This document shows positions 13,206-35,650 of a stretch of 64,000 bases of DNA, piece after piece. The translations under genes were made by a program, and so were the position numbers. Origin of the DNA: a bacterium (GTDB lineage: Bacteria > Electryoneota > AABM5-125-24 > Hatepunaeales > Hatepunaeaceae); assembly GCA_025774605.1 (NCBI GenBank), contig JALGVR010000001.1, forward strand, positions 2,634 through 66,633. Reading direction: 5' to 3'. How positions within the stretch are numbered: the stretch's first letter is position 1; every line of letters begins with the position of its first letter. The notes beneath the pieces are model-generated. The model was given only the letters and a program-made list of their open reading frames with translations, had not been told where the DNA came from and made no database searches.

Positions 13206-15320
13206 TTGGATCAATATCTTTTAATCACACTGATAGCTGGTGTACTGGCGTTGCTCTTCGCCCTTTTCAAGGCCGGACTGGTCAAACGTCAGGATGTTGG
13301 CGATGCCAGGATGGCGGAGATAGCGAAGAATATCCATGAGGGGGCGATGGCCTTTCTGGGTAAAGAATACTCGGTTCTCGTCATCTTCGTGATAGCAGTA
13401 GCGATCCTGCTGGCGATCGCCAACGCGGGCAACCCGGAATCACACGCGCTCGTCGCCCTGTCGTTCGTTCTCGGCGCGATCTGCAGCGGCCTGGCGGGTT
13501 TTTTCGGGATGACCGTCGCCACCAAAGCCAACGTCCGTACGACTCAGGCGGCGCGCACCGGATTATCCAAGGCGTTGTCCGTCGCGTTCTCCGGTGGAAC
13601 CGTAATGGGGATGTCGGTGGTCGGGCTGGCGGTATGCGGTCTGGTGATACTGTTTCTCGTTTATACCAGGCTGATGGGTTTTGACGCACATACGCACATC
13701 GGGCTTAAGAAGCTCCTGGCCACCATATCCGGTTTTTCTCTGGGCGCTTCATCAATCGCCCTGTTCGCCCGTGTCGGCGGCGGTATTTACACGAAAGCCG
13801 CTGACGTCGGCGCCGACCTGGTCGGGAAGGTGGAAGCCGGCATTCCGGAAGACGACCCGCGCAATCCCGCGGTTATCGCTGACAACGTCGGGGATAATGT
13901 CGGCGACGTCGCCGGTATGGGAGCCGATCTGTTCGAGTCATACGTCGGAGCGATCGTCGGTTCGATGGTCATCGGCGGCTCGAGCTGGTATGTGTTGTCT
14001 GCAGGTGCGGAGAAGGCGTTGATGCCGGTGATGCTGCCGCTTGTGCTGGCAGCGGCGGGGATCATCGTCTCCATAATCGGCACCTTCTTCGTTCGGTCGG
14101 GAGAGAAATCGAATCCACAGACCGCGCTGAACATCGGCACGTTCGGCGCCGGGATTTTGATGGTGATCGCTTCCTGGTTCATCATACATGCCTTTATCGA
14201 GAGGCCGGTGCGGGTCACCGATTTCTTCGGTGTTATGCACACCTATACGGCGACCGGCGTCTTTCTCGCCACGATCTACGGATTGCTCGCCGGAATTGCC
14301 ATCGGGCTGATCACCGAATATTTCACATCCGAAAGCCGCGGTCCTGCGCATGCTGTCGCCCGCGAGAGCCTGACCGGCGCGGCAACCAACATCATCGCGG
14401 GGTTGGCGACCGGCATGCGGTCCACAGCCCTTCCGCTGATAGTGCTCGGCGCCGCAATCATCCTGGCCTATCATTCAGCCGGTCTCTACGGGATCGCCAT
14501 CGCTGCAGTCGGAATGTTGTCTACAACCGGAATTCAGCTCGCCGTCGATGCCTATGGCCCGATTGCCGACAATGCCGGTGGGATAGCGGAGATGGCCGAG
14601 CTCGGCCCTGATATCCGCAGGCGAACGGATAAACTCGACGCGGTCGGAAACACAACTGCCGCGATCGGCAAGGGCTTCGCCATCGGGTCGGCCGCACTGA
14701 CCGCGCTGGCGCTGTTCTCGGCGTTCATGACTGTAGTGCAGATCAAGCATCCTGACGTCAGGATAGACGTTATGAATCCGAACGTGATGGCCGGTGTACT
14801 GGTCGGCGCCATGCTCCCGTTCCTGTTCAGTTCATTCGCCATGCGCGCTGTCGGGCGCGCGGCCGGGAAGATGATCGAAGAGGTGCGCCGCCAGTTCAAG
14901 GAAATACCCGGTTTGCTGGAGGGCAAGGAAGGCGTCAAGGCGGATCACAGCCGCTGTGTCACCATCGCCACCGCCGGCGCCATCAAGCAGATGGTTGCAC
15001 CGGGGTTGTTGGCTGTCCTGACACCGGTGGTGGTCGGCTTTGCATTCACCGACAAGTCGGTATTGGGTGGACTGCTTGTCGGCGTTACATCGTCCGGCGT
15101 GCTGATGGCGATCTTCATGTCAAACACCGGCGGCGTGTGGGACAACGCCAAAAAGCATATCGAAGGCGGAGCGTATGGCGGCAAGGGTTCCGATGCCCAT
15201 AAAGCCGCCGTGGTAGGCGACACGGTTGGCGATCCGTTCAAGGATACCGCAGGCCCATCGCTGAATATTCTCATCAAGTTAATGAGTGTCGTTTCGTTGG
15301 TTATTGCGCCCCTGTTGTGA
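13206..15320 (+). CDS. hppA: Membrane-bound proton/sodium-translocating pyrophosphatase (TTG start).
   Basis: 704 aa with about 16 [11 protein letters not shown] and [10 protein letters not shown] signature motifs of H+-PPase. Confidence 0.9.
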
Positions 15321-15423
15321 GGAGGAATTACTGCAGGACGGGATGATGAGAATGGGATTCCATCACCCTCTGCACATTTCCGGGTGGCGATTTGTTAAAG
15401 TCATTTCAAAAGCGAGGTGTTAA

Positions 15424-16656
15424 ATGGGTAAATTGATAAGACCCCACGGCTCCGACAATCTGATCACGCTCCTGTTGCAGGGTGAGGAACTGGCGGCAGA
15501 ACGGCGGAGAGCGGAAACGCTCCCCCAGGCGCGCATTACCTCCCGCGAGGTCGGTGATTTGATCATGATGGGCATCGGCGGATTCACGCCGCTGAAGGGA
15601 TTCATGGGTCACGACGATTGGAAGGGTGTCTGCGCGGAGATGAAGATGACCGACGGCACCTTCTGGCCGATACCGATCACCGTATCGGTCGACAAGGAAT
15701 TCGCTGATTCGATCAGGGAAGGCGACGAGATAACCCTCGTCAACGACGAAGACGGGGATCTCATGGCGACCATGAAAGTCGGCGATAAATATACGATCGA
15801 CAAATCATTCGAATGTAAACACGTTTTCACCACTGACGATCTTGAGCATCCCGGCGTCAAGATGGTGATGAGCCAGAAGGAGGTCAACCTCGGGGGTGAG
15901 GTCAAGGTTCTGTCGGAGAGCTATTTTCCAAAGGAGTTCGCCGGTATCTACCAGCGTCCGGCGGAAAGCCGCAGGATCTTCGAGGAGAAGGGCTGGCGGA
16001 CGATAGCCGCACTGCAGCTCCGCAACCCCATGCACCGTTCGCACGAATATCTGGCGAAGATCGCCATTGAAGTCTCGGACGGTCTGTACATTCACCAGTT
16101 GGTCGGCAAGCTGAAGCCGGGAGACATTCCGGCCGACGTTCGCGTGAAATGTATCAACACCCTGGTGGAGAATTATTTCAACAAGGAGCGGGTGGTCATG
16201 GGCGGCTATCCGCTCGACATGCGTTATGCCGGTCCGCGCGAAGCCTTGCTGCACGGCGTCTTCCGCCAGAACTTCGGCTGCACGCACATGATCATCGGAC
16301 GCGATCATGCCGGTGTCGGCGAATATTACGGCCCGTTCGACGCTCAGACCGCATACTACGACCTGTGGGAAGGCGCCCTGGAATGCAAGATGCTGCCGAT
16401 CGACTGGACGTTCTGGGACTACGGTCAGGGCGGCATGGCGTCGATGAAGACCTCACCGGATAAGAACAAGGACAAGCGGCTGTTCCTTTCGGGCACCAAG
16501 CTGCGCAAACTGCTCAGCGAAGGCAAGCTGGACGAGATTCCACCGGAGTTCAGTCGTCCGGAAGTCCTTACCATTCTCAAGGAGTACTACGCCGGGTTGA
16601 CCGAGAAGGTCGAGATCAAGATGCACGGCTACGCCACCGGTGAAGGAAAGAAATAG
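15424..16656 (+). CDS. sat: Sulfate adenylyltransferase (ATP sulfurylase), dissimilatory type.
   Basis: 410 aa. [12 protein letters not shown] and GRDHAGVG motifs. It lies 100 bp after hppA and just upstream of aprBA. Confidence 0.9.
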
Positions 16657-16710: not shown

Positions 16711-17151
16711 ATGCCAAGCTATGTAAATCCAGAAAAGTGCGATGGGTGCAAGGCGCTGGACAAGACCGCTTGCCAGTATATCTGCCCCAACGACTTGATG
16801 GTCCTGGACAAGGCGACCGAGAAGGCTTACAACCAGGATGTCGCCATGTGCTGGGAATGCTATAACTGCGTGAAGATATGCCCCGTGGATGCGATCGAAA
16901 TGCGCGGTTATGCTGACTTTGTGCCACTCGGTGCAACTGTCACACCGATGCGCGGTTCAGATGCCATTATGTGGACCGTGAAGTTTCGCAACGGGATGTT
17001 GAAACGGTTCAAGTTCCCGATCCGTACAACTCCTGAAGGTTCCGCGGTTCCTGACGGCGGTTGGGATACCGGGACGGATGATTTGGGCGATGCCACCCTG
17101 TTCACCGAACCGGGATCAATCGGGCTGCCTGAAGTTCCAACCCTGAAGTAG
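16711..17151 (+). CDS. aprB: Adenylylsulfate reductase beta subunit.
   Basis: The MPSYVNPEKCDGCKA N-terminus is characteristic of AprB. Two [4Fe-4S] Cys clusters. Confidence 0.9.
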   Translation: MPSYVNPEKCDGCKALDKTACQYICPNDLMVLDKATEKAYNQDVAMCWECYNCVKICPVDAIEMRGYADFVPLGATVTPMRGSDAIMWTVKFRNGMLKRFKFPIRTTPEGSAVPDGGWDTGTDDLGDATLFTEPGSIGLPEVPTLK

Positions 17152-17164
17152 AGGAGTCGTCACA

Positions 17165-19051
17165 ATGGCAAATTTTGAAACTGTTACAGTAAACACCGAT
17201 CTGCTGATTGTCGGCGGCGGCATGGCTGCCTGCGGCGCAGCGGTGGAAGCGGCGTACTGGGCCAAGAAGAACGGCCTGAACGCCGTTATCGTCGACAAGG
17301 CTGCCCTGGATCGTTCCGGCGCGGTGGCGATGGGGCTTTCGGCGATCAACCAGTACGTCGGTCTCAAAGATGGTGATAACACCCTGACCGACTATGTCAA
17401 TTACGTGCGCAACGACCTGATGGGTATCACACGTGAAGACCTGGTCGCCAGCATTGCCCGCCACGTCGACGGGACAGTTCACCTGTTCGAGAAATGGGGT
17501 CTCCCGATCTGGAAGGATGAGGACGGCAAGTACGTGCATGAAGGCCGCTGGCAGCTCATGATCAACGGCGAATCCTACAAGGTTGTCGTCGCCGAAGCAG
17601 CCAAGAATGCAATCGGGATCGACAACCTCTACGAGCGCGTGTTCATCGTCGGTCCGCTGATGGATGGCGACCGCGTTGCCGGCGCAGTCGGTTTCTCGGT
17701 TCGCGAGGAGAAGTTCTACGTGTTCAAGGCAAAGGCTGTCCTGGTTGCCATGGGCGGCGCCGTGCACGTCTTCAAGCCGCGTTCGGCCGGTGAAGGTCTC
17801 GGTCGCGCCTGGTATCCACCCTGGAACTCCGGCTCATCCGCCTACTTTACGCTGAAAGCCGGCGCCGAGATGACCTGCCAGGAGGTCCGGTTCATCCCGG
17901 TGCGCTTCAAGGACGCCTACGGCCCTGTCGGCGCCTGGTTCCTGCTGTTCAAATCCCGCGCCACCAATGGCTTCGGAGAAAACTACATGCAGACCAACGC
18001 CAGTGAGCTCGAGAAATGGGTTCCGTACGGCAAGGTTAAGCCTGTACCCGCCAACCTGCGCAACTGGCTCATGATGCTCGATGTGATGGACGGCAAGGGC
18101 CCCATCTACATGCGTACCGAGGAAGCCATCGCCAACATCGCCGAGCAGTACAAGGACGATCCGAAGGCTTACAAGAAGAAGATGAAGGAGCTCGAGTCCG
18201 AAGCCTGGGAAGATTTCCTTGACATGACCATCTCACAGGCTTTCCTCTGGGCGGCGACAAACGTTGCTCCCGAGGAGAGGTCTTCCGAGATCGCCGCCGC
18301 CGAGCCGTACTTCATCGGCTCACACTCCGGCGCTTCGGGAGCATGGGTCTCCGGACCTGAAGACCTTCAAACCGACGAGACCAGAGGTGAGTACTTCTGG
18401 GGATACGCTCACATGTCCACCGTCAAGGGCCTGTTCTGTGCCGGTGACGCATCAGGCGCATCATCTCACAAGTTCTCGTCAGGTTCTCACGCTGAGGGGC
18501 GCATCGCGGCAAAGGCGGCCGTCAAGTTCATCATTGACAACAACACAATGCCGAATGTCAGCGACGAGACGATCGAAGGGTTGAAGAAGGAGATACTTGC
18601 CCCGCTCGACCGCTTCGCCCAATTCAGCAAGAACACCACCGATCCGGACGTCAACCCGGATTACATCCGTCCCAAGATGTTCATGTTCAGACTGCAGAAG
18701 ATCATGGACGAGTACGCCGGTGGTGTGACTTCCCAGTTTATGACCTCCAAGGTCATGCTGGATAAGGGGCTTGAGCTGTTGGCTTTCCTCAAGGAAGACT
18801 CGGAAAAGCTGGCCGCCGAGAACCTTCATGAACTGATGCGCTGCTGGGAGAACATCCATCGCATGTGGCAGGCTGAAGCCCACGTCCGCACCATCCTCTT
18901 CCGCGAGGAGACCCGTTGGCCCGGTTACTACTTCCGTGCCGACTGTCCCGAGATGAAGGATGACTGGAAGGTCTTCGCCAACTGCCGGTGGGATCCCGCC
19001 AGCGGCGAATGGGAGATGAAGAAAAGACCGGTTTACCAGATATTTGACTAA
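17165..19051 (+). CDS. aprA: Adenylylsulfate reductase alpha subunit (FAD flavoprotein).
   Basis: 628 aa. DLLIVGGGMAACGAA FAD motif. VDKAALDRSGAVAMGLSAINQY is typical of AprA. Confidence 0.9.
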   Translation: MANFETVTVNTDLLIVGGGMAACGAAVEAAYWAKKNGLNAVIVDKAALDRSGAVAMGLSAINQYVGLKDGDNTLTDYVNYVRNDLMGITREDLVASIARHVDGTVHLFEKWGLPIWKDEDGKYVHEGRWQLMINGESYKVVVAEAAKNAIGIDNLYERVFIVGPLMDGDRVAGAVGFSVREEKFYVFKAKAVLVAMGGAVHVFKPRSAGEGLGRAWYPPWNSGSSAYFTLKAGAEMTCQEVRFIPVRFKDAYGPVGAWFLLFKSRATNGFGENYMQTNASELEKWVPYGKVKPVPANLRNWLMMLDVMDGKGPIYMRTEEAIANIAEQYKDDPKAYKKKMKELESEAWEDFLDMTISQAFLWAATNVAPEERSSEIAAAEPYFIGSHSGASGAWVSGPEDLQTDETRGEYFWGYAHMSTVKGLFCAGDASGASSHKFSSGSHAEGRIAAKAAVKFIIDNNTMPNVSDETIEGLKKEILAPLDRFAQFSKNTTDPDVNPDYIRPKMFMFRLQKIMDEYAGGVTSQFMTSKVMLDKGLELLAFLKEDSEKLAAENLHELMRCWENIHRMWQAEAHVRTILFREETRWPGYYFRADCPEMKDDWKVFANCRWDPASGEWEMKKRPVYQIFD

Positions 19052-19063
19052 TCGGTCGCCCGA

Positions 19064-19102
19064 ATTCGGAGGCTCCCCGAAGGGAGCCTCCGAATGTGAT
19101 TT
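19064..19102 (+). terminator. Strong hairpin downstream of aprA (13-bp perfect stem, GNRA-like loop cgaa). Probably a terminator or transcript-stabilising element.
   Basis: attcggaggctccc-cgaa-gggagcctccgaat. It has only a weak downstream T-tract. Confidence 0.5.
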
Positions 19103-19152
19103 TCAACGTTGAACGTCAAGCCGAATGAAGAAAGGATTTCTGTAATATCAGA

Positions 19153-19422
19153 ATGTTGAAGATAATCGAACCACCAGTATGTCTTCACTGTGGCGGGTTG
19201 ATGGACAAAATGGAGATGCCCGCCGAGGCGGGTTATCCGAGTTCATTCGTCTGGGTTTGTTTCAACGATGATTGCCCCTACTATGTTCGAGGATGGCAAT
19301 GGATGAAGGAGAAATATGAGGTTAAGTCATCATACCGGTATAAGATAAATCCTGTCACGGGCTTAGCCAGTCCTCTGCCTGTGTGGTCTGAAACCGCCAT
19401 GAAAGACCGCATCGTTAGCTGA
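19153..19422 (+). CDS. Small (89 aa) Cys4 zinc-ribbon-like protein of unknown function.
   Basis: CLHC...x22...CFNDDC arrangement. It sits between aprA and the qmo genes. Confidence 0.4.
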   Translation: MLKIIEPPVCLHCGGLMDKMEMPAEAGYPSSFVWVCFNDDCPYYVRGWQWMKEKYEVKSSYRYKINPVTGLASPLPVWSETAMKDRIVS

Positions 19423-19441
19423 AAGGAACATAAATCCGCAG

Positions 19442-20272
19442 ATGAAAGAGTTTGAAGATCTTAAGAAGAAAATACTGACTGAATATCCCCGTTTGAGCCC
19501 CAGGGATCGGTTCCGATTCGAGTGCGGTCCGGACCTCGAGTGCTTTAATGTTTGTTGTTCCGATGTGAATATCTTCCTGACGCCCTATGATGTGCTGATG
19601 ATGCGCAAAGCCCTGGATATGGACTCCACCCGCTTCCTCGCCGAATATACGATTGTTCCCTTCGACAAGAATCAGAAACTGCCCGTACCGCTGCTGAAGA
19701 TGCGCGATACCGAGCGGAAGGAATGCCGATTCGTGGATACCAGGAAGGGCTGCAAAATCTACGAGCACCGTCCCTGGCCCTGCCGCATATATCCGCTGGG
19801 CGCCGCGTCGCCCGGTGAGACCGAAGTTAACGCCGAGCCGTTTTATTTCCTGATCCAGGAGGGACACTGCAAGGGTCACGAACGCGCCAGGGAATGGACG
19901 GTGGATGAATGGCTCGAGGACCAGGGGATCAGCGAATATGCCGAGTTCGGTGAGCTGTTCAAGAAGGTCACGCTGCACCCGGCGTTCACGCGGGGAAGGG
20001 AGCTGGCGCCGCAACAGATCGATATGTACTGGACGGCGCTTTACGATCTCGATAAGTTCAGACGCTTCATCTTTGAAAGCAGTTTTCTCAAACGTTTCGA
20101 AATCACGGAGCCGAAACTCGACGAGCTGAAGGTCGACGATGTCTCGCTGCTTCGTTTCGGTTTCGATTGGATCAGGTTTGCCATGTTTGGAGAGAAACGG
20201 GTAAAAGTCAGACCGGACGCCGAGAAGTGGATAAAGGGCGAGGGGGTCAAACCGGGGGTTGCCAATGCCTGA
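19442..20272 (+). CDS. YkgJ/UPF0153-family Fe-S/Zn-binding protein (CxxCxxCC-type 'putative zinc- or iron-chelating domain').
   Basis: ECGPDLECFNVCC cluster. The downstream C..IY.HRPWPCRIYP signature is typical of YkgJ-like proteins. Its end overlaps the qmoC start by 14 bp. Confidence 0.55.
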   Translation: MKEFEDLKKKILTEYPRLSPRDRFRFECGPDLECFNVCCSDVNIFLTPYDVLMMRKALDMDSTRFLAEYTIVPFDKNQKLPVPLLKMRDTERKECRFVDTRKGCKIYEHRPWPCRIYPLGAASPGETEVNAEPFYFLIQEGHCKGHERAREWTVDEWLEDQGISEYAEFGELFKKVTLHPAFTRGRELAPQQIDMYWTALYDLDKFRRFIFESSFLKRFEITEPKLDELKVDDVSLLRFGFDWIRFAMFGEKRVKVRPDAEKWIKGEGVKPGVANA

Positions 20273-21434
20273 GGCGCTGATTGCCCGGCCGGACCGGGAT
20301 TTCATTCGCAGGGTCAAGGCCGCCGGCGGCGAATCGGTACAGAAGTGCTACCAGTGCGCGACCTGCTCGGTCGTCTGCGATCTGTCGCCGGTCGATTGTC
20401 CCTTCCCACGCAAGGAGATGATCTGGACGCAGTGGGGGATGGGCGATAAACTGATGACTGATCCGGACGTCTGGCTCTGTCACCAGTGCAACGACTGTTC
20501 GGTCAATTGTCCGAGGAATGCCAAGCCCAGCGAGGTGTTGGCGGCCATCCGCACGGTGGCTTTCGGTCACTTCGCCTTCCCCGGTTTCATGGGGAGGCTG
20601 CTCGCCAATCCATGGGGGTTGATCCCACTTTTGCTGCTGCCGATTATCCTCATCGGAGCGGTGATATGGCAGGAGACAGGCGGTAACCTGGCGCCGCTGT
20701 TTCATGCGTCGGTCGTGGATTTCAACCTCTTCATACCGCACGGCGTTTCCGATATGATGTTCATCATCGGTAACATTATCATCTTCACTTTTGCGGCTGT
20801 CGGACTGTTCCGATTCTGGCGGGGGATGCATAACTCCTGGGGCGTTCAGCCGAAGAGGGGTTTCATATCCGCGCTGATCTCGATCGTCCTTGAAATACTG
20901 CGGCACAACCGGTTCGGGAAGTGTACCGCCGGTCGTTATAGACAGACGGCTCATCTGCTGGTGCTCTTCGGTTTTATCGGGGCGGCGATCGCCACGGCCG
21001 GAGCGTTGGTCGAGATGATAGTCTTGCACGAGTTTCTCGGGCTCGAGGGGCACTATCCGCCCTTTCCGCTCTATCACCCGATCAAGATATTCGGCAACCT
21101 GGGCGGCTTTGCCATCCTCGTCGGACTGGCGATAATGATTGTCCAGCGGCTGACGAACCGGGAGAAGGTGGGTGTGGTCGGGTATTCAAACTGGCTGTTC
21201 ATCTGGATGGTCGGCCTGGTTACGCTCTCGGGCCTGCTGTGCCAGTTCATGCGGATCGCCGTGGTCCCTGAAGCGGCTTATCCCCTTTATTTTCTGCATC
21301 TCGTCACGGTCTTTTTCCTGCTCTGGTACGCGCCCTACAGCCAGTTCGGGCACATGTTCTACCGGACGCTGGCGATGATCTTTGCGCGGAGCGTGGGCAG
21401 GGAGGCGAGAGAACTAAAAAATAATAATTATTAA
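20259..21434 (+). CDS. qmoC: QmoC-like membrane subunit: an N-terminal HdrC-like di-[4Fe-4S] domain fused to an HdrE/NarI-like cytochrome b membrane domain.
   Basis: CYQCATCSVVCD and CHQCNDCSVNCP motifs are followed by about 6 TM helices. It is unusually placed upstream of qmoA. Confidence 0.7.
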   Translation: MPMPEALIARPDRDFIRRVKAAGGESVQKCYQCATCSVVCDLSPVDCPFPRKEMIWTQWGMGDKLMTDPDVWLCHQCNDCSVNCPRNAKPSEVLAAIRTVAFGHFAFPGFMGRLLANPWGLIPLLLLPIILIGAVIWQETGGNLAPLFHASVVDFNLFIPHGVSDMMFIIGNIIIFTFAAVGLFRFWRGMHNSWGVQPKRGFISALISIVLEILRHNRFGKCTAGRYRQTAHLLVLFGFIGAAIATAGALVEMIVLHEFLGLEGHYPPFPLYHPIKIFGNLGGFAILVGLAIMIVQRLTNREKVGVVGYSNWLFIWMVGLVTLSGLLCQFMRIAVVPEAAYPLYFLHLVTVFFLLWYAPYSQFGHMFYRTLAMIFARSVGREARELKNNNY

Positions 21435-21485
21435 ATTGGGAATTTAAATAATTTTGGAAACGATACATTCCATATTGGAGATGCT

Positions 21486-22730
21486 TTGAACACCGACCTT
21501 TTAGTGATCGGCGGAGGGATCGCCGGCATTACGGCTGCCGTCGAAGCGGCGGAAACCGGCAGGGAGGTCGTACTGGTGGAGAAGCAGCACCAACTCGGCG
21601 GACGCGTGCTGCAGATGCACAAGTACTTCCCCAAGCTGTGCCCACCGGTGTGCGGTCTCGAGATCAACTTCCGCCGCATCAGGCAGAATCCGAAGATCAA
21701 GGTTTTAACCGGCGCCAAACCGACCAGTATCGAAGGCGTTCCCGGCGATCTGACCGCGATCATCCACGTCGAACCGAGCTATGTAAAGGCTGATTTCACG
21801 AGCGGCAAAGGTGTTGAAAATGACTGTCCGGTGGAAATCGCCGATCGGTTCAATTTCGGCATGAACAGGACCAAGGCGTTCAGACTGCCGCACGAACTCG
21901 CCTACCCCTATCGGTATGTCATCGATGAGGAATCGGCTCACGACCCGGCGATGAAGCAATTTATCGAATCGTCCGGCATCGAGGGCGTTGACCTCGACAT
22001 GCAGCCCGAAGACGTCGAGGTCAAAGCCAAGGCGGTTATCTGGGCGACCGGCTGGGAACCCTACGACGCGAACAAGCTTGATCACCTCGCCTACGGCAGA
22101 CTGCCGAACGTCGTCACGAACATGGAGATGGAACGGATCGCCGCGGTCAACGGCCCCACGAAGGGCAAAATCCTCCGACCGTCCGATCAGCAGCCGATCA
22201 CCAGAGCCGCCTTCGTTCAGTGCGCCGGCTCACGTGACGAGAACCATCTGCCGTACTGCTCGGCGGTATGCTGCATGGCTTCACTGAAACAGAGCCGTTA
22301 CATCAGGGAGCAGTACCCGGACGCGGAGATCCACATTTTCTTTATCGACGCCCGCACTCCCGGTCGGTGGGAGGATTTTTACCAGGAAGTTCAGGACGAT
22401 GAGAAGACCGTCATCCACCGCGGCAAGGTGGCTCGCATCGAGGAAGCCGGGAACGGCATGGTGACGCTGACCGCCGAGAATACCTTGACGGGCAAGTTGG
22501 AACAGGTGAGCGTCGACATGGCGATCCTTGCCACAGGCATGGTTCCGACGGTCGCCGTGGACGCGCCACCGATCAAAATCAACGTGGATGAATTCGGTTT
22601 CATACAGAATAACGGGACTTCCGTTGTTGTCGGCGCCGGCGTAGCCACCGGCCCCAAGGACGTCGCCTCGACCAATGAGGAAGCGACCGGCGCGGTCGTG
22701 AGGGCGCTGCAGATGATGACGGGGAAATAG
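21486..22730 (+). CDS. qmoA: QmoA (HdrA-like flavoprotein).
   Basis: 414 aa. LVIGGGIAGITAA FAD motif. HdrA-family CAGSRD...YCS.VCC motif. Confidence 0.85.
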   Translation: MNTDLLVIGGGIAGITAAVEAAETGREVVLVEKQHQLGGRVLQMHKYFPKLCPPVCGLEINFRRIRQNPKIKVLTGAKPTSIEGVPGDLTAIIHVEPSYVKADFTSGKGVENDCPVEIADRFNFGMNRTKAFRLPHELAYPYRYVIDEESAHDPAMKQFIESSGIEGVDLDMQPEDVEVKAKAVIWATGWEPYDANKLDHLAYGRLPNVVTNMEMERIAAVNGPTKGKILRPSDQQPITRAAFVQCAGSRDENHLPYCSAVCCMASLKQSRYIREQYPDAEIHIFFIDARTPGRWEDFYQEVQDDEKTVIHRGKVARIEEAGNGMVTLTAENTLTGKLEQVSVDMAILATGMVPTVAVDAPPIKINVDEFGFIQNNGTSVVVGAGVATGPKDVASTNEEATGAVVRALQMMTGK

Positions 22731-22733
22731 AAC

Positions 22734-25001
22734 ATGGAAGCTAAAACAGGCGTATATATCTGTTCCGGCTGCGGCATCAAGGATTCTTGTAACGTTGAAG
22801 CCATCGCCAAGATGGTGGAAGACGAGCTCGATGTGGAGCTCTGCAAGGTTGATCCGCTGGTCTGCGGCGATGAATGTGTGGCGGGTATCAAAGCCGACAT
22901 CGAAGCCGCGGGGTTGGATCATGTGGTGATCGCCGGCTGTTCCGGCCGTTATTTTTCCGATCGATTCAAGTTCGGCGACAATGTGCTGATCGACCGGGTG
23001 GCTCTGCGTGAGTTCGTCGCCTGGACGAGCGATCCGCAGGCCGATATCGACGACATCGAAGAGGTTATACAGGAGCAGGCTGAAGACTACCTGCGCATGA
23101 GCGCAGCGCGGATGAAATACAGCGAAGCCCCCGTGCCGATGGATGTGGAGGAGACATCCAGGGATATCATGGTGGTCGGTGCGGGCGTGGCGGGGCTTAA
23201 CGCCGCGCTGGCCGCCGCTGATGCCGGTTACAAGGTTACACTTGTCGAAAAGGAAGCCGAGCTCGGCGGCTGGTCGAGGAAATTCAAGACGGTCATTCCC
23301 CAGGCCGCGCCCTATCGCGAACCTCAGGCTCCGCCTCACACCGAGCTCGTTAAAGCTGTGAACGATCACGAACTGATAAAGGTCCTTACTTCATCGACAG
23401 TGACCAGGACCAGCGGTCAGCCCGGTCAGTTCGACGTGACCATCCAGAACGGTTCGGGCGAAGAGAAACTTCGCATCGGCGCCATCGTCCAGGCGACCGG
23501 CTGGCTGCCTTACGATCCGACCAGGCTCGCGGACAAGTACGGTTACGGCAGGCTCCCCAACGTCATCACCAACGTCATGATGGAGGAGATGGCGGCGGCG
23601 GGCAGGATCGCCAGGCCGTCCGACGGCGCGGCGCCTAAGGCCGTGGCGATCATTCACTGCGCCGGATCGCGTGACAGGGAATTCCTGCCCTACTGTTCGG
23701 CGGTCTGCTGCCGGGTGGCCATGAAGCAGGCTCTGTATATCCGCGAGCAGATGCCGGATACCGATGTTTACCTGCTGTACAAGGACATCCGCAGCCCGGG
23801 CGTCTTTGAGCAGTTCTATGCCAGGGTTCAGGATGAGGAGGGCATCTACCTGACAAAGGGTGAGGTCGTCGAGGTTGTCGAAGACGGTAACGGCGGCGTT
23901 TCGGTGACCCTGGATGACACGCTGCTGGGTGAGAATATAACCGTTCAGGCGGATATGCTGGTGCTGGCGACCGGCATGGTTCCGACGACGCTTGTCGAAA
24001 CCGACGAGACGGACGGGGCGGAGACCGAAGAGAAACCCGCCGAAGAGTCCCCGGGTGACGGGGATGAGAAATCGAGGGCCGCCGGCGCTGAAACAGGCGC
24101 CAATATCCTGGCGCTGACCTACCGCCAGGGAACGGACCTGCCCACACTGAAATACGGATTTCCGGATTCTCATTTCATCTGTTTTCCCTACGAAACCAGA
24201 CGCACCGGCATCTATGCCGCCGGCGCCGTGCGCGCGCCGATGGATATGGGTATGGCGAGGAATGACGGACTGGGCGCGGCGCTGAAGGCGATCCAGGCGG
24301 TGGAAGCATTTCCGCTGGGGCGTGCGCTTCACCCGCGGTCCGGTGATATCAGCTTTCCGGAATTCTTCCTTCAACGCTGCACGCAATGCAAACGCTGTAC
24401 CGAGGAGTGTCCGTTCGGCAGCCTGGACGAGGACGACAAGGGCACACCGGAGCCGAACCTGCTGCGCTGCCGCCGCTGCGGCATCTGTATGGGCGCCTGC
24501 CCGGAGCGGATCATCTCGTTCAAGGACTACTCGCCGAATATGATCTCGCAGATGATCAAGGTCATTTCGATGCCCGAAGAGGACGACGAAAGACCGCGTT
24601 ACCTGGTGTTCATGTGCGAAAACGACGCGCTGCCGGCGTTTGACATCGCGGCCTGGCACAGGCACAAGATCTCTCCGTGGGTGCGCATCATTCCGGTGCG
24701 CTGCATCGGTTCGGTAAATACGGTGTTCATTGCCGACGCGCTGAACGGAGGCTTCGACGGCATCCTGCTGTTGGGTTGCAAGCGCGGTGACGATTATCAG
24801 TGTCACTTCGTGCGCGGCAGCGAACTCGCCAACACCAGGATGGAAAACGTCCAGGAGAAACTGCTGCAACTGTCGCTCGAAGAGGAGCGCGTCCAGATTC
24901 ATGAGGTCGAGCTGTCGGATTGGGATCGGATCCCGGAGATCATCAATGACTTCGTCGAGGAGATCAACGACATCGGGCCGAATCCGTTCAAGGATTTTTA
25001 G
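22734..25001 (+). CDS. qmoB: QmoB (HdrA-like flavoprotein with ferredoxin and a MvhD-like C-terminal domain).
   Basis: 755 aa. Two HdrA-like FAD halves, a di-cluster ferredoxin (CTQCKRCTEECP; CRRCGICMGACP), and a C-terminal MvhD-like domain. Confidence 0.85.
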   Translation: MEAKTGVYICSGCGIKDSCNVEAIAKMVEDELDVELCKVDPLVCGDECVAGIKADIEAAGLDHVVIAGCSGRYFSDRFKFGDNVLIDRVALREFVAWTSDPQADIDDIEEVIQEQAEDYLRMSAARMKYSEAPVPMDVEETSRDIMVVGAGVAGLNAALAAADAGYKVTLVEKEAELGGWSRKFKTVIPQAAPYREPQAPPHTELVKAVNDHELIKVLTSSTVTRTSGQPGQFDVTIQNGSGEEKLRIGAIVQATGWLPYDPTRLADKYGYGRLPNVITNVMMEEMAAAGRIARPSDGAAPKAVAIIHCAGSRDREFLPYCSAVCCRVAMKQALYIREQMPDTDVYLLYKDIRSPGVFEQFYARVQDEEGIYLTKGEVVEVVEDGNGGVSVTLDDTLLGENITVQADMLVLATGMVPTTLVETDETDGAETEEKPAEESPGDGDEKSRAAGAETGANILALTYRQGTDLPTLKYGFPDSHFICFPYETRRTGIYAAGAVRAPMDMGMARNDGLGAALKAIQAVEAFPLGRALHPRSGDISFPEFFLQRCTQCKRCTEECPFGSLDEDDKGTPEPNLLRCRRCGICMGACPERIISFKDYSPNMISQMIKVISMPEEDDERPRYLVFMCENDALPAFDIAAWHRHKISPWVRIIPVRCIGSVNTVFIADALNGGFDGILLLGCKRGDDYQCHFVRGSELANTRMENVQEKLLQLSLEEERVQIHEVELSDWDRIPEIINDFVEEINDIGPNPFKDF

Positions 25002-25046: not shown

Positions 25047-26273
25047 ATGGCGGACAAAACCAAAGCCTCGGGAAAACTCGACGAGCTGAAAAAGGGTCCG
25101 TATCCGAGCTTCGTGAAGGAGATCGAGGCCGCCGCGGAAACCAACAAGATGGCGCATGACCTGATCGGTCAGCTTGAGCTTTCCTACGATGAAAAACTTT
25201 GCCACTGGAAACACGGCGGCATTGTAGGTGTGATGGGGTACGGCGGAGGCGTTATCGGTCGTTACAGCGATGTTCCGGAGAAATTTCCCAACGTGTCACA
25301 TTTTCACACCTTGCGCGTCAATCAGCCCGCTGCCTGGTTTTACAAGACGGATGCGTTGCGGAAGATATGCGACATGTGGGAGAAGCGTGGGTCTTCAGTA
25401 TTGAACGTTCACGGCTCAACCGGCGATATCGTTCTGCTGGGCACCACGACACCGCAATTGGAGCCCGTCTTCAATGAACTCACATCGCTGGGATTCGATC
25501 TGGGGGGATCGGGATCGGTACTCAGAACCCCGTCCTGCTGCGTGGGACCGGCGCGCTGCGAATGGGCGATGTACGACACCCTGAAATACGCTTACGAAAT
25601 GACAATGCGCTATCAGGATGAGCTGCACAGGCCGTACTTCCCCTACAAGTTCAAGTTCAAGTTTGCCGGCTGCCCCAATGACTGCGTGGCCTCGGTGGCG
25701 CGCGCCGACATGTCGTTCATCGGCACGTGGAAGGACGACATTCAGATCGACCAGGACAAGGTTCGCTGGTATGCTGAAGAGCGGAAGGTCGATATCGAAG
25801 ACGTGGTTGTGGAGCGCTGCCCGACCAAATGCATGGCTTGGGACGGCAAGGAGCTCTTCATCGACAACCGCAACTGCGCCAGGTGCATGCACTGCATCAA
25901 CGTCCTGCACCTCGCTCTCAAGCCCGGCAAGGACCGCGGCTGCACCATCATGCTCGGCGCGAAAGCCCCGATCCTTGAAGGCGCTCAGTTGTCGAGTGTC
26001 CTGGTGCCGTTCATGCGGATGGCGCCGCCTTATGGAGAGGACGAAGCCACCGCCGAAGACCTTCCGGAACTGATCGACAACATCTGGGAGCTGTGGGGCG
26101 AAGAGGGCAAGAACCGGGAACGTGTCGGCGAATTTATCCAGAGGATAGGCATGGGCAACTTCCTGGACGCCATCGGTCTCGAACCGCAGGCCGAGATGGT
26201 TGCGCATCCCCGCACAAACCCGTACGTCTTCTACGACCTGGGTAAGGATGAAGAAGAGGAAGAGGATGAGTAA
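25047..26273 (+). CDS. dsrA: Dissimilatory sulfite reductase alpha subunit.
   Basis: Collinear with Desulfovibrio DsrA ([27 protein letters not shown]; [19 protein letters not shown]; [11 protein letters not shown]). Confidence 0.9.
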
Positions 26274-26352
26274 TACTGCTTCTCAGCTTGAGAAGTACAT
26301 CCTCGATCGCTCATTTAGGCAATTAATGATATAAAGATACAGGAGATCAACA

Positions 26353-27435
26353 ATGACAGCAGAACCAGCTGAAAGGTTGACTGATATAGGTCCACCGCAT
26401 TATGAGAGATTCCTGCCGCCGGTGGTGAAGGCAAACTATGGCAAGTGGGTGAGCCATGAAATCCTTCAACCGGGCGTACTGGTTCATACTGCGGAGTCCG
26501 GTGACAAGATCTATTCGATCAGGGCGGCAACCGCGCGCTTGATATCGGTGCCCAAGATACGTCAATTCTGTGATATTGCGGATAAATACTGCGACGGGCA
26601 CATTCGCTGGACGAGCCGCAACAACGTGGAATTTCTGACCACCAAGAAGGAGAATGTAGAACCCATCAAGCAGGCGGTTGAAGCGCTGGGTCATCCGGTG
26701 GGCGGCACCGGCAACAGTATAACCAACATCGTTCATACCCAGGGATGGGTTCATTGTCACTCGGCCGCCACCGATGCCTCCGGCATAGTCAAGGCGGTAA
26801 TGGATGAACTGATGGACGAATTCACCAACATGCGCCTGCCCGGCAAACTCCGCATCGCGCTGGCTTGCTGCCTTAACATGTGCGGCGCGGTTCACTGCTC
26901 GGACATCGCCATCCTTGGCATCCACCGCCGTCCGCCGACCATCGATCACGATCGGCTGCGCAAGATGTGCGAGATCCCGAACACCGTGGCAGCATGTCCG
27001 ACGGCGGCGGTCCGTCCGGTGACCATTGACGGCAACCCGTCGGTCGAGGTTATCGAAGAGCAGTGCATGTTCTGCGCCAACTGCTTCACGGTCTGTCCCT
27101 CCATGCCGCTCAACGATCCCGAATATGACGGCGTCTCAATCTGGGTCGGCGGCAAGGTGTCCAACGCGAGGCATGAGCCGACGTTCTCGAAGCTGGCGGT
27201 GCCATACATTCCCAACAATCCGCCGCGCTGGCCCGAAGTGGTCAGCGCCGTAAAGAACCTCGTCACCATCTGGACTGACAACGCCAGACCGTATGAACGG
27301 ATGGGCGAATGGATCGAACGGATCGGATGGCCGCGCTTCTTCGAGATGGCTGGAATTGACTTCCAGAAGGAACATATTGATGACTTCAAGCATGCAGTAA
27401 CAACCTACAAGACGTCTGCACACTTGAGGTTCTAA
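26353..27435 (+). CDS. dsrB: Dissimilatory sulfite reductase beta subunit.
   Basis: 360 aa. Siroheme/[4Fe-4S] Cys motifs ([20 protein letters not shown]). Follows dsrA. Confidence 0.9.
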
Positions 27436-27454
27436 ACTGCGAAGGGAGAAGATT

Positions 27455-27721
27455 ATGGCTGATATGGTACCAGTCGAAGAGATTGCCGATGCTATGTTCA
27501 AGATGATTAAGGACGCTGCCGGCAAGAAGCAGTACAAATCAATGGATCTGCAGAAGGCGATGAAGGAGCTCTATCCGGGTCGAGTGGATAAACAGCTCTG
27601 CAAGGCGGCGATCAAGCAGCTTATCAATTCAGGACGCTGCATTTACACCTATTTCGGAGGCAGCTACATCGAGCTTCCTCACGTCGAAGGTGCGGCGAAT
27701 CCTGAACAGACGGAAACGTAG
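27455..27721 (+). CDS. dsrD: DsrD (small winged-helix protein, a marker of reductive-type Dsr).
   Basis: 88 aa. The position after dsrB and the C-terminal pattern (INSGRCIYTYFGGSYIEL) resemble Desulfovibrio DsrD. Confidence 0.7.
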   Translation: MADMVPVEEIADAMFKMIKDAAGKKQYKSMDLQKAMKELYPGRVDKQLCKAAIKQLINSGRCIYTYFGGSYIELPHVEGAANPEQTET

Positions 27722-29107
27722 TTGAACCCACCCCGGCTGCTCATAGCCGGATGCGGTGGAGACAGCGGAAAGACCTTGGTGACGCTGGGTCTGATCCGGA
27801 CCTGGCGTCACAAGGACATTAAAATAGTCCCTTTCAAGAAGGGACCCGATTATATCGATCCTGCCTGGCTTACCCTGGCATCCGGTGTTGAAACCCATAA
27901 TCTCGACACCTGGATGATGGGGCGGGAAGGAGTATTGCGCTCTTTTACACGATATTCGCGCCCGGATGCGTTGAACCTGATCGAGGGCAACCGCGGGCTG
28001 CACGACGGCGGGGACGCCCGGGGAACGCACTCCTCGGCGGTCATCGCCAGACTGCTGAAGACGCCGGTTGTCCTGGTTCTGCCCGTGAACAAGGTTACCC
28101 GAACGGCGGCGGCGTTTGTCCTGGGGGTTAAGCTTCTCGACGAAAATGTCCGTATCGCCGGTGTTGTTCTGAATCTTGTCGGCGGCGAACGGCATGAAGC
28201 CGTGGTCAGGAGGGCTGTTGAGGATGAGACCGGTGTGCCGGTGCTGGGGGCGGTGCCGCGCCGCAGGCGTGAGATCCTGCCCGACCGGCACCTGGGGCTG
28301 GTGACGCCGTCCGAACACGCGCAGGCCGACCAGGCGATCGAGGTCGCCTGCAGTATGGTTCGCGATACAATCGACACCGATCGGTTGCTGCGGATAGCCC
28401 ACGATACGGATGATTTGACCGGCACGGTCTCGGCTGAACCGGTGCACGAGATACACGACCGCAACATCAGGATCGGTTATTTCGCCGGTTCGGCGTTTAC
28501 CTTTTACTATCCCGAGAACCTGGAGGACTTGAAAGCCTCCGGGAGCTCGCTGGTGAAAATCAATCCGCTTGAAGCCCCGGCAATGCCTGAAATCGACGCT
28601 CTTTATATCGGCGGCGGGTTTCCTGAAACGCACGCCGCTTCGTTGAGCGGAAATCAACGGTTTATGCAAAGCGTGGCTGAGGCGGCGGCACGGGGACTGC
28701 CGGTCTGGGCCGAATGCGGTGGCTTGATGTTTCTGGCGCGGCGGCTTGAGTGGCGGGGGAGGAGCTACCCGATGGCCGGTGTTCTGCCGGTTGATGTCAA
28801 GGTTCAAGAACGTCCCCAGGGGCACGGCTACCAGGAGATCGAGGTCGACGCCGACAATCCGTTCCTCAGGATCGGAACACGTATACGCGGTCATGAGTTT
28901 CACTATTCGCGGGTGATTTCTCATGCTGAACCGCCGACCGTGTTCCGGGTGCGGCGGGGAACCGGGATCGGCGGCAATCGCGATGGTATCAGGATAAATA
29001 ACACACTCGCTTCGTATCTGCATGTGCATTCGTCTGCTGCACCGGAATGGTGTGATGGAATGATAAAAGCGGCAATGAATTACAACGTATCACATTTTCA
29101 GAAATAG
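27722..29107 (+). CDS. dsrN: Siroheme amidase DsrN (cobyrinic acid a,c-diamide synthase homolog). TTG start.
   Basis: CbiA-family P-loop (GCGGDSGKT). A C-terminal glutamine amidotransferase domain with the catalytic Cys (WAECGGLMFL). Confidence 0.8.
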   Translation: MNPPRLLIAGCGGDSGKTLVTLGLIRTWRHKDIKIVPFKKGPDYIDPAWLTLASGVETHNLDTWMMGREGVLRSFTRYSRPDALNLIEGNRGLHDGGDARGTHSSAVIARLLKTPVVLVLPVNKVTRTAAAFVLGVKLLDENVRIAGVVLNLVGGERHEAVVRRAVEDETGVPVLGAVPRRRREILPDRHLGLVTPSEHAQADQAIEVACSMVRDTIDTDRLLRIAHDTDDLTGTVSAEPVHEIHDRNIRIGYFAGSAFTFYYPENLEDLKASGSSLVKINPLEAPAMPEIDALYIGGGFPETHAASLSGNQRFMQSVAEAAARGLPVWAECGGLMFLARRLEWRGRSYPMAGVLPVDVKVQERPQGHGYQEIEVDADNPFLRIGTRIRGHEFHYSRVISHAEPPTVFRVRRGTGIGGNRDGIRINNTLASYLHVHSSAAPEWCDGMIKAAMNYNVSHFQK

Positions 29108-29164
29108 GTTCCGGAATTCCGGCGTTACAATTTGAACTGAAATGCACCCTGGAAGGAAACAGTA

Positions 29165-30862: not shown

Positions 30863-30890
30863 ACATATCTAACTCTTAGGAGGAGTTCAA

Positions 30891-31205: not shown

Positions 31206-31218
31206 TCGGTTTATAAAT

Positions 31219-31260
31219 ATGCGGGATTTTCGAGGTGCTTAAGCCTTGAAAATCCCGCAT
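31219..31260 (+). terminator. 13-bp perfect-stem hairpin immediately after dsrC. Possibly a terminator or mRNA-stabilising stem-loop.
   Basis: atgcgggattttc-[16 nt loop]-gaaaatcccgcat. No T-tract follows. Confidence 0.4.
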
Positions 31261-31303
31261 GATATATGCGTCATCTCTATTCCATTTGGTTGTAATACCG
31301 AGT

Positions 31304-31831: not shown

Positions 31832-31876
31832 ATCAGCGGGCATCCATAACATTGAAAGGCGGGGAGGTGTCGTCAC

Positions 31877-32869: not shown

Positions 32870-32871
32870 CG

Positions 32872-35643: not shown

Positions 35644-35650
35644 GGGAGGC

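Follow-up and report, generated by a model that had tools for sequence, protein, structure and literature searches.

Gene content of the apr–qmo locus

The window, which is the whole analysed stretch of 64,000 nucleotides from a bacterium of the Electryoneota (assembly GCA_025774605.1, contig JALGVR010000001.1, positions 2,634 to 66,633), carries a co-directional cluster of sulfate-reduction genes. The upstream part of this apr–qmo cluster is formed by hppA and sat (13206–16656, + strand), and two open reading frames, ORF89 and ORF276, are located behind the APS reductase genes. The features of the locus are as follows:

13206–15320, + strand: hppA, recognised from its own translation and from 66–77% tblastn matches adjoining sat-aprBA in related loci
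15424–16656, + strand: sat, with ATP-sulfurylase and PUA_2 domains (Pfam scan)
16711–17151, + strand: aprB, APS reductase beta subunit, with PF12139 (APS-reductase_C, 1.9e-35) and Fer4 domains
17165–19051, + strand: aprA, APS reductase alpha subunit, with PF00890 (FAD_binding_2)
19064–19095, + strand: GC-rich hairpin with a 14-bp stem, just 3′ of the aprA stop codon
19153–19422, + strand: ORF89, an acidic C4 zinc-ribbon protein of 89 aa
19442–20272, + strand: ORF276, a long-form YkgJ-family protein of 276 aa (PF03692)
20265–21434, + strand: qmoC, Qmo membrane haem-b/Fe-S subunit (equivalog NF038018, 391 bits against a cut-off of 300)
21486–22730, + strand: qmoA, with HdrA-like FAD/Fe-S domains
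22734–25001, + strand: qmoB, with HdrA-like FAD/Fe-S domains and FlpD

The qmo genes are thus arranged in the order qmoC-qmoA-qmoB, which places the pair between aprA and qmoC. The first-pass annotation had correctly located it between aprA and the qmo genes but had taken the next gene for qmoA, which the NF038018 match identifies as qmoC. Translation of qmoC probably starts at ATG 20265, so that the gene overlaps the stop codon of ORF276, TGA at 20270–20272 (ATGCCTGA), while a mechanical listing of open reading frames puts the start at TTG 20259.

The 101-nt spacer between aprA and ORF89 is largely characterised by the hairpin, in which 9 of the 14 stem pairs are G-C and which is followed by a T-rich tract (GTGATTTTCA). 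The region 19049–19155 has a folding energy of -41.5 kcal/mol (z = -5.5), and a similarly strong hairpin, defined as -20.5 kcal/mol or stronger within a 60-nt window, is found in the same spacer of 67 out of 67 related loci, with no conservation of its sequence. No Rfam family matched the spacer hairpin. It resembles a terminator, an attenuator or an mRNA-stabilising element, and looks most like a terminator or a stabiliser. A promoter region of its own had been ascribed to ORF276; the spacer yielded this terminator-like hairpin instead, and no sigma-70-like site with a search model that excludes promoters of the Bacteroidota type, whose TAnnTTTG motif was not seen by eye in the spacer either.

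Two families of cysteine-rich proteins

ORF276 consists of an N-terminal cysteine-rich domain and a C-terminal helical domain. Its residues 33–120 match PF03692 (CxxCxxCC) with 39.5 bits against a gathering score of 23 (E = 9.7e-10), and the same family is precomputed on 240 of 240 homologues among the matches listed; in total, 1701 database homologues were found. The protein is 100% identical to HHE46241.1 of a Bacteroidota MAG, which is annotated as a “YkgJ family cysteine cluster protein”. Eight cysteines are arranged as C28-x5-C34-x3-C38-C39 (CX5CX3CC), followed by C95, C104, C114 and C143, the second group sitting around the sequence RPWPCRxYP. All eight are invariant in 81 of 81 apr-linked homologues and in 21 of 21 sequences sampled over three clades. 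The Pfam match and the C...C...CC motif are common to ORF276 and the YkgJ family (UPF0153, COG0727; putative zinc- or iron-chelating proteins), whereas ORF276 differs in having the CX5CX3CC spacing instead of the eponymous CxxCxxCC, the additional invariant Cys143 and a helical C-terminal domain of about 130 aa. In length it exceeds E. coli YkgJ, a protein of roughly 110 aa, about 2.5-fold. A further difference from the YkgJ family at large is that the genes of this long subfamily lie within apr, qmo and dsr clusters. The AlphaFold2 model of ORF276 has a pLDDT of 87 and a pTM of 0.84, and the median pI of the family is 5.2.

The only biochemically characterised PF03692 protein is FliB, the flagellin lysine N-methyltransferase of Salmonella, in which a CX4CX3CC motif binds one redox-active [4Fe-4S] cluster and four of the eight conserved cysteines are ligands (PMC8598068). 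Eight cysteines are conserved also in ORF276, with CX5CX3CC in place of CX4CX3CC, and by analogy with FliB one or more [4Fe-4S] clusters are most likely held by this motif and the four further cysteines. What the two proteins share is the cysteine domain only, as compared by family models (via PF03692), and their contexts differ: FliB belongs to flagella, whereas ORF276 is found in energy metabolism without flagellin. No NCBIfam family matched ORF276 at E<=0.01, and therefore no FliB-type model matched, if the library has one. A Pfam scan of the protein revealed no recognisable SAM-binding domain and no PF02754. Homology to the latter, the CCG domain of HdrB, HdrD and DsrK, was considered and rejected, the ORF276 family profile giving an hhalign probability of 0.14% (E = 0.42) against DsrK/HdrD-like proteins. 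There are nevertheless likenesses: like the CCG-domain subunits HdrB and DsrK, ORF276 is cysteine-rich, has adjacent cysteines and is encoded beside HdrA-like genes (qmoA and qmoB). Because Qmo seems to have no HdrB-type partner, ORF276 could in principle fill an HdrB-analogous place.

ORF89 has the cysteine pattern C10-x2-C13-x22-C36-x4-C41, followed by a beta-rich, conserved C-terminal half with the motifs GWxWM, SYR and PLPVWS. A word-indexed database search gave 27 homologues, and 273 cluster representatives were matched in a profile search. C36, C41, G47, W48, M51, S60, Y61 and R62 are invariant in 80 of 80 sequences; accordingly the second cysteine pair is kept in all of them and the first in 73, the seven sequences without it being ascribed to start-codon miscalls in extraction. 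The model of ORF89 is confident (AlphaFold2 pLDDT 94.7), and the family is acidic, with a median pI of 5.5 and a net charge of -2. The coordinates, the cysteine patterns and the PF03692 match bear out the first-pass description of the two products as an 89-aa Cys4 ribbon and a 276-aa YkgJ/CxxCxxCC protein. The profile searches that it had proposed placed ORF276 in its family above the gathering score, whereas ORF89 of the window matched no Pfam or NCBIfam model at E<=0.01.

The closest likeness of ORF89 is to the phage P2 Ogr and P4 Delta proteins (PF04606). The window protein reaches 13.8 bits against a gathering score of 26.3, over residues 35–52, which cover only the second cysteine knuckle. 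In the family, 24 of the 27 members match PF04606 at E<=1 (best 7.5e-12), and orthologues in five loci (L081, L082, L089, L090 and L092) carry precomputed matches to it. The spacing CX2C-X22-CX4C is the same as that of P2 Ogr. On the other hand, the conserved C-terminal half presumably has no counterpart in Ogr, and the ORF89 model showed no structural similarity to viral protein models (every E>1). Ogr is presumably basic (computed pI about 8.8), and the ORF89 family, acidic and with no viral structural match, is set apart from an Ogr-like basic activator. In addition, the ORF89 genes, unlike those of phage Ogr and Delta, are chromosomal, lie in a respiratory operon and always have a YkgJ partner.

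Searches of PDB chains with both families, by sequence and by profile, gave nothing below E = 0.25. The two proteins are of structural interest, having confident predicted folds and no solved homologue.

Conservation and gene contexts of the pair

A genome scan found ORF276 relatives at no fewer than 594 loci (at least 594) in species-level genomes. The 82 loci examined carry labels of more than 10 phyla, and the pair loci include those labelled Zixibacteria, Ignavibacteria, Calditrichota, Gemmatimonadota, Planctomycetota, Acidobacteriota, Elusimicrobiota, Abyssobacteria, Krumholzibacteria and Deltaproteobacteria/Polyangia MAGs. ORF89 is found directly 5′ of ORF276 in 81 of the 82, and the remaining locus is a truncated contig. 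The gap between the two genes has a median of 9 nt, and 4-nt overlaps occur in many loci. Directly upstream of the pair, aprA is found in 69 of 82 loci and hppA in 6 of 82, with aprBA just 5′ of hppA in four of these six, where the contig reaches far enough. Taken over the 77 informative loci, the pair stands directly behind aprBA or aprBA-hppA in 75, with two exceptions. One locus (L063) has the pair but no apr gene, over 9.6 kb on its upstream and about 10 kb on its downstream side. The conservation of the two genes next to apr and qmo, on which the first-pass annotation had made its proposal depend, is therefore found.

In contrast to the upstream side, the downstream side is variable. The gene 3′ of ORF276 is qmoA in 27 loci, qmoC in 20, dsrA in three and another gene in 28, and the location of the qmo genes with respect to the pair takes at least six forms. 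In an Elusimicrobiota locus, qmo is replaced after the pair by a MerR gene together with DsrM-like and DsrK-like genes, and MerR-family genes are found 3′ of the pair in two loci. The linkage of the pair is thus with aprBA, and more broadly with the genes of sulfate reduction, and not with the Apr-Qmo junction as such. Compared with the window, the median identity is 51% for ORF276, 48% for ORF89, 51% for QmoA, 54% for QmoB and 43% for QmoC, so that the pair is about as well conserved as the Qmo subunits. In the 69 loci with aprA immediately 5′ of the pair, this AprA shares 69–88% identity with that of the window.

The two genes had been regarded as unexpected and as inserted, but the arrangement is normal across many phyla, and it has been noted in passing before. 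In Thermonerobacter thiotrophicus the order “sat-aprBA-hyp-hyp-qmoC” was reported with “two conserved hypothetical genes”, whose presence in four related MAGs was noted with no family, distribution or function given (Thiel et al., 2019; PMC6338057). This order equals that of the Ignavibacteria-type loci found here, and judging from position the hypothetical genes are almost certainly members of the ORF89 and ORF276 families. The pair appears to be absent from canonical sulfate reducers, as seen from the published operons: the aprBA-qmoABC-DVU0851 operon of Desulfovibrio has six genes (PMC3125180), and green sulfur bacteria have sat-aprBA-qmoABC (PMC6338057). DVU0851, or “QmoD” (Dde_1114), is likewise a small uncharacterised gene co-transcribed with apr and qmo (PMC3125180; PMC4045070), whereas it sits after qmoC and the pair after aprA. 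As DVU0851 is reportedly confined to Desulfovibrio (PMC3125180), homology with the pair was set aside on this published description.

There are more distant cases. Full-length relatives of ORF276 that keep the same eight cysteines are found after aprBA in Thermodesulfovibrionia, 3′ of qmoABC in a Syntrophorhabdales-type locus, and within dsr clusters together with an ORF89 orthologue. In the sulfate reducers Desulfofundulus, Ammonifex degensii and Desulfothermobacter the relatives are not adjacent to apr: they adjoin NuoE/NuoF-like genes in the first and ferredoxin-AOR in the other two. All of these contexts adjoin flavin/Fe-S oxidoreductase modules. Tandem pairs of ORF276 paralogues are common. 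In one locus (L092), a Methyltransf_11 gene lies between a YkgJ tandem and the ORF89 orthologue. Furthermore, at least six representative proteins combine an ORF89-like domain, at one terminus or the other, with a class I SAM methyltransferase. When the methyltransferase of L092 was compared by blastp with the corresponding parts of three such fusions, nothing matched at E<=1e-3, and the link of the ORF89 family to methyltransferases is a weak lead.

Possible roles in sulfate reduction

Neither protein has an assigned role in sulfate reduction in the literature that we searched, in agreement with the first-pass annotation. Indeed, we found no functional, genetic or proteomic study of either one, and no relevant paper joining YkgJ, PF03692, UPF0153 or COG0727 to sulfate reduction. 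ORF89 and ORF276 are genuine genes, and from the contexts described above they are very probably co-translated and encode a cytoplasmic metalloprotein pair that belongs functionally to the sulfate-reduction set and is anchored to aprBA. Constant adjacency and the 4-nt start/stop overlaps suggest that ORF89 is most likely a small binding partner of ORF276, with a structural or docking function.

Our best reading of the role, with a maturation factor as a close rival, is an electron relay. We tentatively suggest, with less than even confidence, that the pair is a soluble Fe-S/Zn redox accessory of AprBA acting as relay or adaptor in the path from Qmo to Apr. As a soluble, acidic Fe-S redox partner, it would dock on AprBA and would carry or gate low-potential electrons between an electron-input module and AprB; this module would be QmoABC here, and DsrMK-like or NuoEF/ferredoxin-type modules in other lineages. 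An adaptor of this kind may thus act within the Qmo-to-Apr electron path. The acidity of both families, as in soluble redox carriers, and the redox-active cluster bound by the related motif of FliB would be consistent with a carrier. Several observations argue against it. Canonical sulfate reducers appear to do without the pair, so that such a relay would not be universally required; the pair remains beside aprBA even where the qmo genes have moved away, which an enzyme-specific maturation factor fits equally well; the sole characterised PF03692 protein is a methyltransferase enzyme and not an electron carrier; and ORF89-like domains are fused to SAM methyltransferases, while the pair of L063 has no apr gene nearby.

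Much of the same evidence bears on a second possible role, to which we give somewhat less credence than to the relay: a factor dedicated to the maturation, repair or modification of AprBA, or of Fe-S/flavin oxidoreductases generally. The cluster of ORF276 would then be catalytic or a cluster donor and ORF89 a client-recognition subunit, in the manner of the cysteine-rich FdhE, NapF or NarJ-type genes beside respiratory enzymes or of a FliB-type [4Fe-4S] methyltransferase. That the tightest synteny is with the catalytic aprBA and not with electron-donor genes points in this direction, as do the adjacency of relatives to different Fe-S enzymes (NuoEF-like, AOR, Qmo and Dsr), the methyltransferase fusions and the Methyltransf_11 gene of L092; FliB, too, modifies a protein (PMC8598068). 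ORF276 has no similarity to FliB outside the cysteine domain, however, and the L092 methyltransferase is not matched to the three fusion proteins compared. AprA binds FAD non-covalently, and we know of no modification specific to AprBA, both of which count against a maturation factor. In our judgement, Qmo-subunit-like conservation and the common tandem paralogues would also be unusual for a chaperone-type factor.

It is improbable that the pair is a regulatory module tuning apr, qmo and dsr expression, with ORF89 as an Ogr/Delta-type transcription factor and ORF276 as an Fe-S redox or sulfur sensor. The PF04606 matches in the family and the Ogr-like cysteine spacing speak for such a module. 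So do the MerR-family genes after the pair and the terminator-like hairpin 5′ of it, behind which the pair could be expressed at a low, regulator-like level. Against these stand the acidity of the ORF89 family compared with the presumably basic Ogr, the score of the window protein far below the PF04606 gathering score, a model unlike any viral one, and the conserved C-terminal half, which presumably lacks an Ogr counterpart. Eight invariant cysteines and about 50% identity over more than 10 phyla, in lock-step with the enzymes, are in our judgement rare for regulators. It is hardly credible that the genes are unrelated passengers or mis-called open reading frames hitch-hiking on a horizontally transferred apr cassette: the AprA identity over nominally distant phyla does suggest block-wise cassette transfer that could carry passengers, but the pair has stayed together while qmo, sat, hppA and dsr were rearranged around it in at least six ways, its catalytic-looking residues are invariant, its paralogous clades occur again inside qmo and dsr clusters, and both proteins give confident models.

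Returning to the electron relay, a broader form of it can be proposed, which we consider unlikely though worth stating. The eight-cysteine long-form YkgJ proteins, with an Ogr-like ribbon partner or a second YkgJ paralogue, may be an unrecognised class of soluble Fe-S redox proteins that would supply or gate a second low-potential input to Qmo-AprBA. A second electron input of this kind has been proposed, as in electron-confurcation models, and is not known to have been identified. If this is true, the class would link NADH- or ferredoxin-dependent modules (NuoEF-like, ferredoxin-AOR) to APS reduction in a large part of the environmental sulfate reducers.

The electron route to APS reductase is a long-standing open point of sulfate-respiration bioenergetics. 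QmoABC interacts with AprAB; to our knowledge, the passage of electrons from quinol via Qmo to APS has never been reconstituted with purified components, and a further partner has been proposed. The pair is real, travels with the sulfate-respiration genes and has no assigned function, and is therefore a good candidate for an overlooked part of sulfate reduction. Its carriers include lineages of the FCB group, Gemmatimonadota, Planctomycetota and Acidobacteriota newly added to the sulfur cycle by metagenomics, and relatives exist in the cultured Gram-positive sulfate reducers Ammonifex degensii, Desulfofundulus and Desulfothermobacter. In genome data the pair may also mark a particular kind of Apr system, and two uncharacterised metalloprotein families wired into apr, qmo and dsr clusters are concrete, testable candidates.

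The gene pair within the sulfate-reduction cluster

On the + strand of the window, an unbroken co-directional cluster runs from hppA through dsrP.

Genes of the cluster (coordinates in the window, strand, product)
13206-15320, +, hppA
15424-16656, +, sat
16711-17151, +, aprB
17165-19051, +, aprA
19153-19422, +, ORF89, 89-aa C4 zinc-ribbon protein
19442-20272, +, ORF276, 276-aa long-form YkgJ/PF03692 protein
20259/20265-21434, +, qmoC (NCBIfam qmoC equivalog, 391 bits)
21486-22730, +, qmoA
22734-25001, +, qmoB
25047-26273, +, dsrA
26353-27435, +, dsrB
29165-30862, +, DsrL-like GltD-type Fe-S flavoprotein, between dsrB and dsrC
30891-31205, +, dsrC
31259-31831, +, dsrT
31877-36805, +, dsrM, dsrK, dsrJ, dsrO and dsrP (dsrJ without a Pfam hit)

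ORF89 and ORF276, spaced by 19 nt, have exactly the coordinates given in the first-pass annotation; the gene following them, a point missed there, is qmoC. The qmo order is therefore C-A-B (20259-25001) as against the canonical qmoABC; the same order is found in the nearest relatives (loci L001, L003, L004 and L005), and L002, whose contig stops within qmoC, is compatible with it. The probable start of qmoC shares bases with the stop codon of ORF276 (ATGCCTGA). On the - strand, a 300-aa ORF (19415-20317) overlaps ORF276 fully; this is most likely a non-coding shadow of ORF276, because the + frame has a Pfam domain and thousands of homologues. The DsrL-like flavoprotein, dsrT and dsrMKJOP are found in one cluster here (25047-36805), and dsrL in such clusters was treated as unusual by Thiel et al. 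(2019; PMC6338057). The gene after dsrP (36951-38633) codes for a flavoprotein that resembles CoA-disulfide reductase and ends in a rhodanese domain, and a similar gene comes after qmoC in a related locus, L081.

In the 101-nt spacer between aprA and ORF89, no sigma-70-like promoter was found, and the separate promoter region of the first-pass annotation is not supported. The spacer harbors a hairpin of 14 bp, 9 of them G-C (19064-19095), followed by GTGATTTTCA. The folding energy of the region is -41.5 kcal/mol (z = -5.5), and no Rfam family matches it. All 67 related loci among L002-L080 that have such a spacer show an equally strong hairpin behind aprA (at least as stable as -20.5 kcal/mol in windows of 60 nt): the sequences differ and the stability is kept. 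Probably, the hairpin is a terminator, attenuator or mRNA stabiliser that sets aprBA, as highly expressed genes, apart from those further downstream.

Conservation of the pair beside aprBA

With each GTDB species represented by one genome, a scan gave at least 594 loci encoding an ORF276 relative; the best 80 of them and two Mb-scale contigs, 82 loci in all, were examined. An ORF89 orthologue is located directly 5′ of ORF276 in 81, the remaining one being a contig that begins 85 nt before ORF276, and the median distance between the two genes is 9 nt, many of them overlapping by 4 nt. A lack of conservation near apr/qmo in other genomes had been named among the findings that would count against the pair; aprA is directly upstream of it in 69 of the 82 loci. 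In six others the upstream gene is hppA (aprBA-hppA is visible in four of these), in one the pair is divergent from sat-aprBA, and four are too short for the upstream gene to be determined. L063 (9587-10756), a Krumholzibacteriia MAG, is the only one of the 82 loci in which the pair has no apr, qmo, sat or dsr match within about 10 kb on either side (9.6 kb upstream). The records are labelled Zixibacteria, Ignavibacteria, Calditrichota, Ca. Hatepunaea, Gemmatimonadota, Planctomycetota, Acidobacteriota, Elusimicrobiota, Abyssobacteria, Krumholzibacteria, Kryptoniota and Deltaproteobacteria/Polyangia MAGs. In many lineages, then, the pair accompanies aprBA and, in a broader sense, the genes of sulfate reduction. 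The earlier observation is confirmed and its interpretation supported in part.

The qmo genes take at least six different positions relative to the pair in the 82 loci: qmoABC or qmoCAB follows it, qmoCAB precedes sat, qmoAB comes before the pair and qmoC after it, a lone qmoC is on the other strand, or the locus has no qmo. In an Elusimicrobiota MAG (L046, 10934-13931), aprBA-ORF89-ORF276 is followed by genes for a MerR regulator, a membrane protein of the NarI/DsrM type and a DsrK/HdrD-like protein with a CCG domain, and no qmo gene was found within 10 kb; these genes may serve Apr as another module for electron input. Median identities to the window proteins are 77% for AprA, 75% for AprB, 72% for Sat, 54% for QmoB, 51% for QmoA and 43% for QmoC; with 51% for ORF276 and 48% for ORF89, the pair is therefore conserved like the Qmo subunits.

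An arrangement sat-aprBA-hyp-hyp-qmoC, with two conserved hypothetical genes, was described in Thermonerobacter and set against green sulfur bacteria (Thiel et al., 2019; PMC6338057), and neither further mention of the pair nor a functional proposal was found in the literature beyond it. The extra gene of the Desulfovibrio aprBA-qmoABC operon, DVU0851 or "qmoD", is reported to be genus-specific (PMC3125180; PMC4045070); with it the operon has six genes, and therefore the pair has no room there.

Protein families and their wider contexts

Residues 33-120 of ORF276 match PF03692 (CxxCxxCC, YkgJ/UPF0153), and a Bacteroidota MAG encodes a protein 100% identical to it, annotated "YkgJ family cysteine cluster protein". 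Eight cysteines (C28, C34, C38, C39, C95, C104, C114 and C143) are invariant in 81 out of 81 apr-linked homologues, and also in 21 out of 21 sequences from three clades mutually 34-44% identical. In a confident AlphaFold model (pLDDT 87, pTM 0.84), the N-terminal domain is Cys-rich with an alpha/beta fold, and the C-terminal one is helical. The sole characterized PF03692 protein is FliB, the Salmonella flagellin lysine N-methyltransferase, which has eight conserved cysteines and whose CX4CX3CC motif holds a redox-active [4Fe-4S] cluster (PMC8598068). The motif type is common to FliB and ORF276, with nothing further detectable; by this analogy, ORF276 would bind at least one [4Fe-4S] cluster. 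No relationship to the DsrK/HdrB CCG domain is detectable.

The cysteines of ORF89 are spaced as CX2C-X22-CX4C, and its second half is highly conserved (GWxWM, SYR, NPxTG, PLPVWS). An Ogr/Delta zinc-finger model is matched by 24 of 27 family members, the window copy falling under the Pfam threshold, and the very confident predicted model (pLDDT 94.7) has no structural neighbours in the PDB and viral models. ORF89 presumably binds zinc and ORF276. Both are real genes of these families, carrying invariant metal-ligand residues, and both families are acidic. Among 1.84 billion cluster representatives, the ORF89 profile has 273 matches, 169 of them at E<=1e-10. In several of these, the ORF89-like domain is joined, at either terminus, to a class I SAM methyltransferase (fusion proteins P0190, P0195, P0208, P0234, P0277 and P0206), and in some distant ones to a HEAT/zinc-ribbon protein or a lipocalin-like domain. 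A HEAT-repeat gene is also carried by 10 of the loci; in some labelled Zixibacteria or Ignavibacteria, it codes for about 220 aa downstream of ORF276 (L011 10872-11549, L022 10998-11741, L029 14897-15550; also L020, L021, L025, L031, L049 and L059), for the most part directly convergent to it. These fusions and neighbours are leads rather than functional evidence.

A full-length ORF276 relative (42% identical) was found by tblastn of plasmid records in L083, a 27-kb record (NZ_CP061968.1, "Klebsiella pneumoniae strain LZK001 plasmid unnamed3"). Its gene comes after NuoE-like and NuoF-like genes, and the protein is 100% identical to one of Desulfofundulus sp. TPOSR; the record also codes for a spore-germination permease and almost certainly represents Firmicutes DNA, either wrongly labelled or present as a contaminant. 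A search seeded with this protein gave relatives in a range of lineages, among them Gram-positive sulfate reducers in culture. The YkgJ gene is the first of a YkgJ-ferredoxin-AOR cluster in Ammonifex degensii KC4 and Desulfothermobacter acidiphilus (adjoined by a similar HEAT-repeat protein; L084 13754-14419, L085 12953-13618). Two YkgJ paralogues are in tandem between aprA and qmoA in a Thermodesulfovibrionia MAG (with a DUF6955 gene between sat and aprB; L086 7014-7319), follow aprBA-qmoABC in Syntrophorhabdales-type and other contigs, and in two further contigs are within the dsr cluster, adjoining a 50%-identical ORF89 orthologue. L086-L088 have no ORF89 orthologue within the locus. In L092, an ORF89 orthologue with as much as 66% identity to the FCB type is 1.7 kb from the tandem, separated by a DUF5663 gene and a Methyltransf_11 (class I) gene (9005-9715); the product of the latter had no blastp match when compared with the methyltransferase portions of three fusion proteins. 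DUF5663 genes, like DUF6955 small and uncharacterised, follow the tandem in three loci (L087 8733-9086, L088 8929-9246, L092 8594-8947). Thus, the association of long-form YkgJ, ORF89-type ribbon and apr/qmo/dsr recurs in several independent arrangements, and YkgJ genes sited elsewhere in sulfate reducers adjoin other flavin/Fe-S oxidoreductase modules. Tandem duplicates or paralogue pairs of the ORF276 type, found in several lineages (L024 3170-4871, L038 10001-11705, L086-L090 and L092), suggest heterodimers.

Possible roles of the pair

The linkage suggests that the pair acts on or with AprBA. Tentatively, we favor a soluble Fe-S relay or gate, in which electrons would pass from an input module via the pair to AprB, because eight cysteines are invariant, both proteins are acidic and conserved like the Qmo subunits, the pair is translationally coupled to qmoC, differing electron-input modules come directly after it, and relatives adjoin NADH- or ferredoxin-linked modules. 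A close rival, somewhat less likely, is a maturation or modification factor; in its favor are the closer link with the catalytic genes, the precedent of FliB and the fusions of ORF89-like domains to methyltransferases. A regulatory module is improbable, given acidic proteins and the absence of an Ogr-like fold, and mere hitch-hiking genes are very unlikely.

The pair is not peculiar to the window: as an accessory of gene clusters for dissimilatory sulfate reduction it is widespread, and it has hardly been studied.
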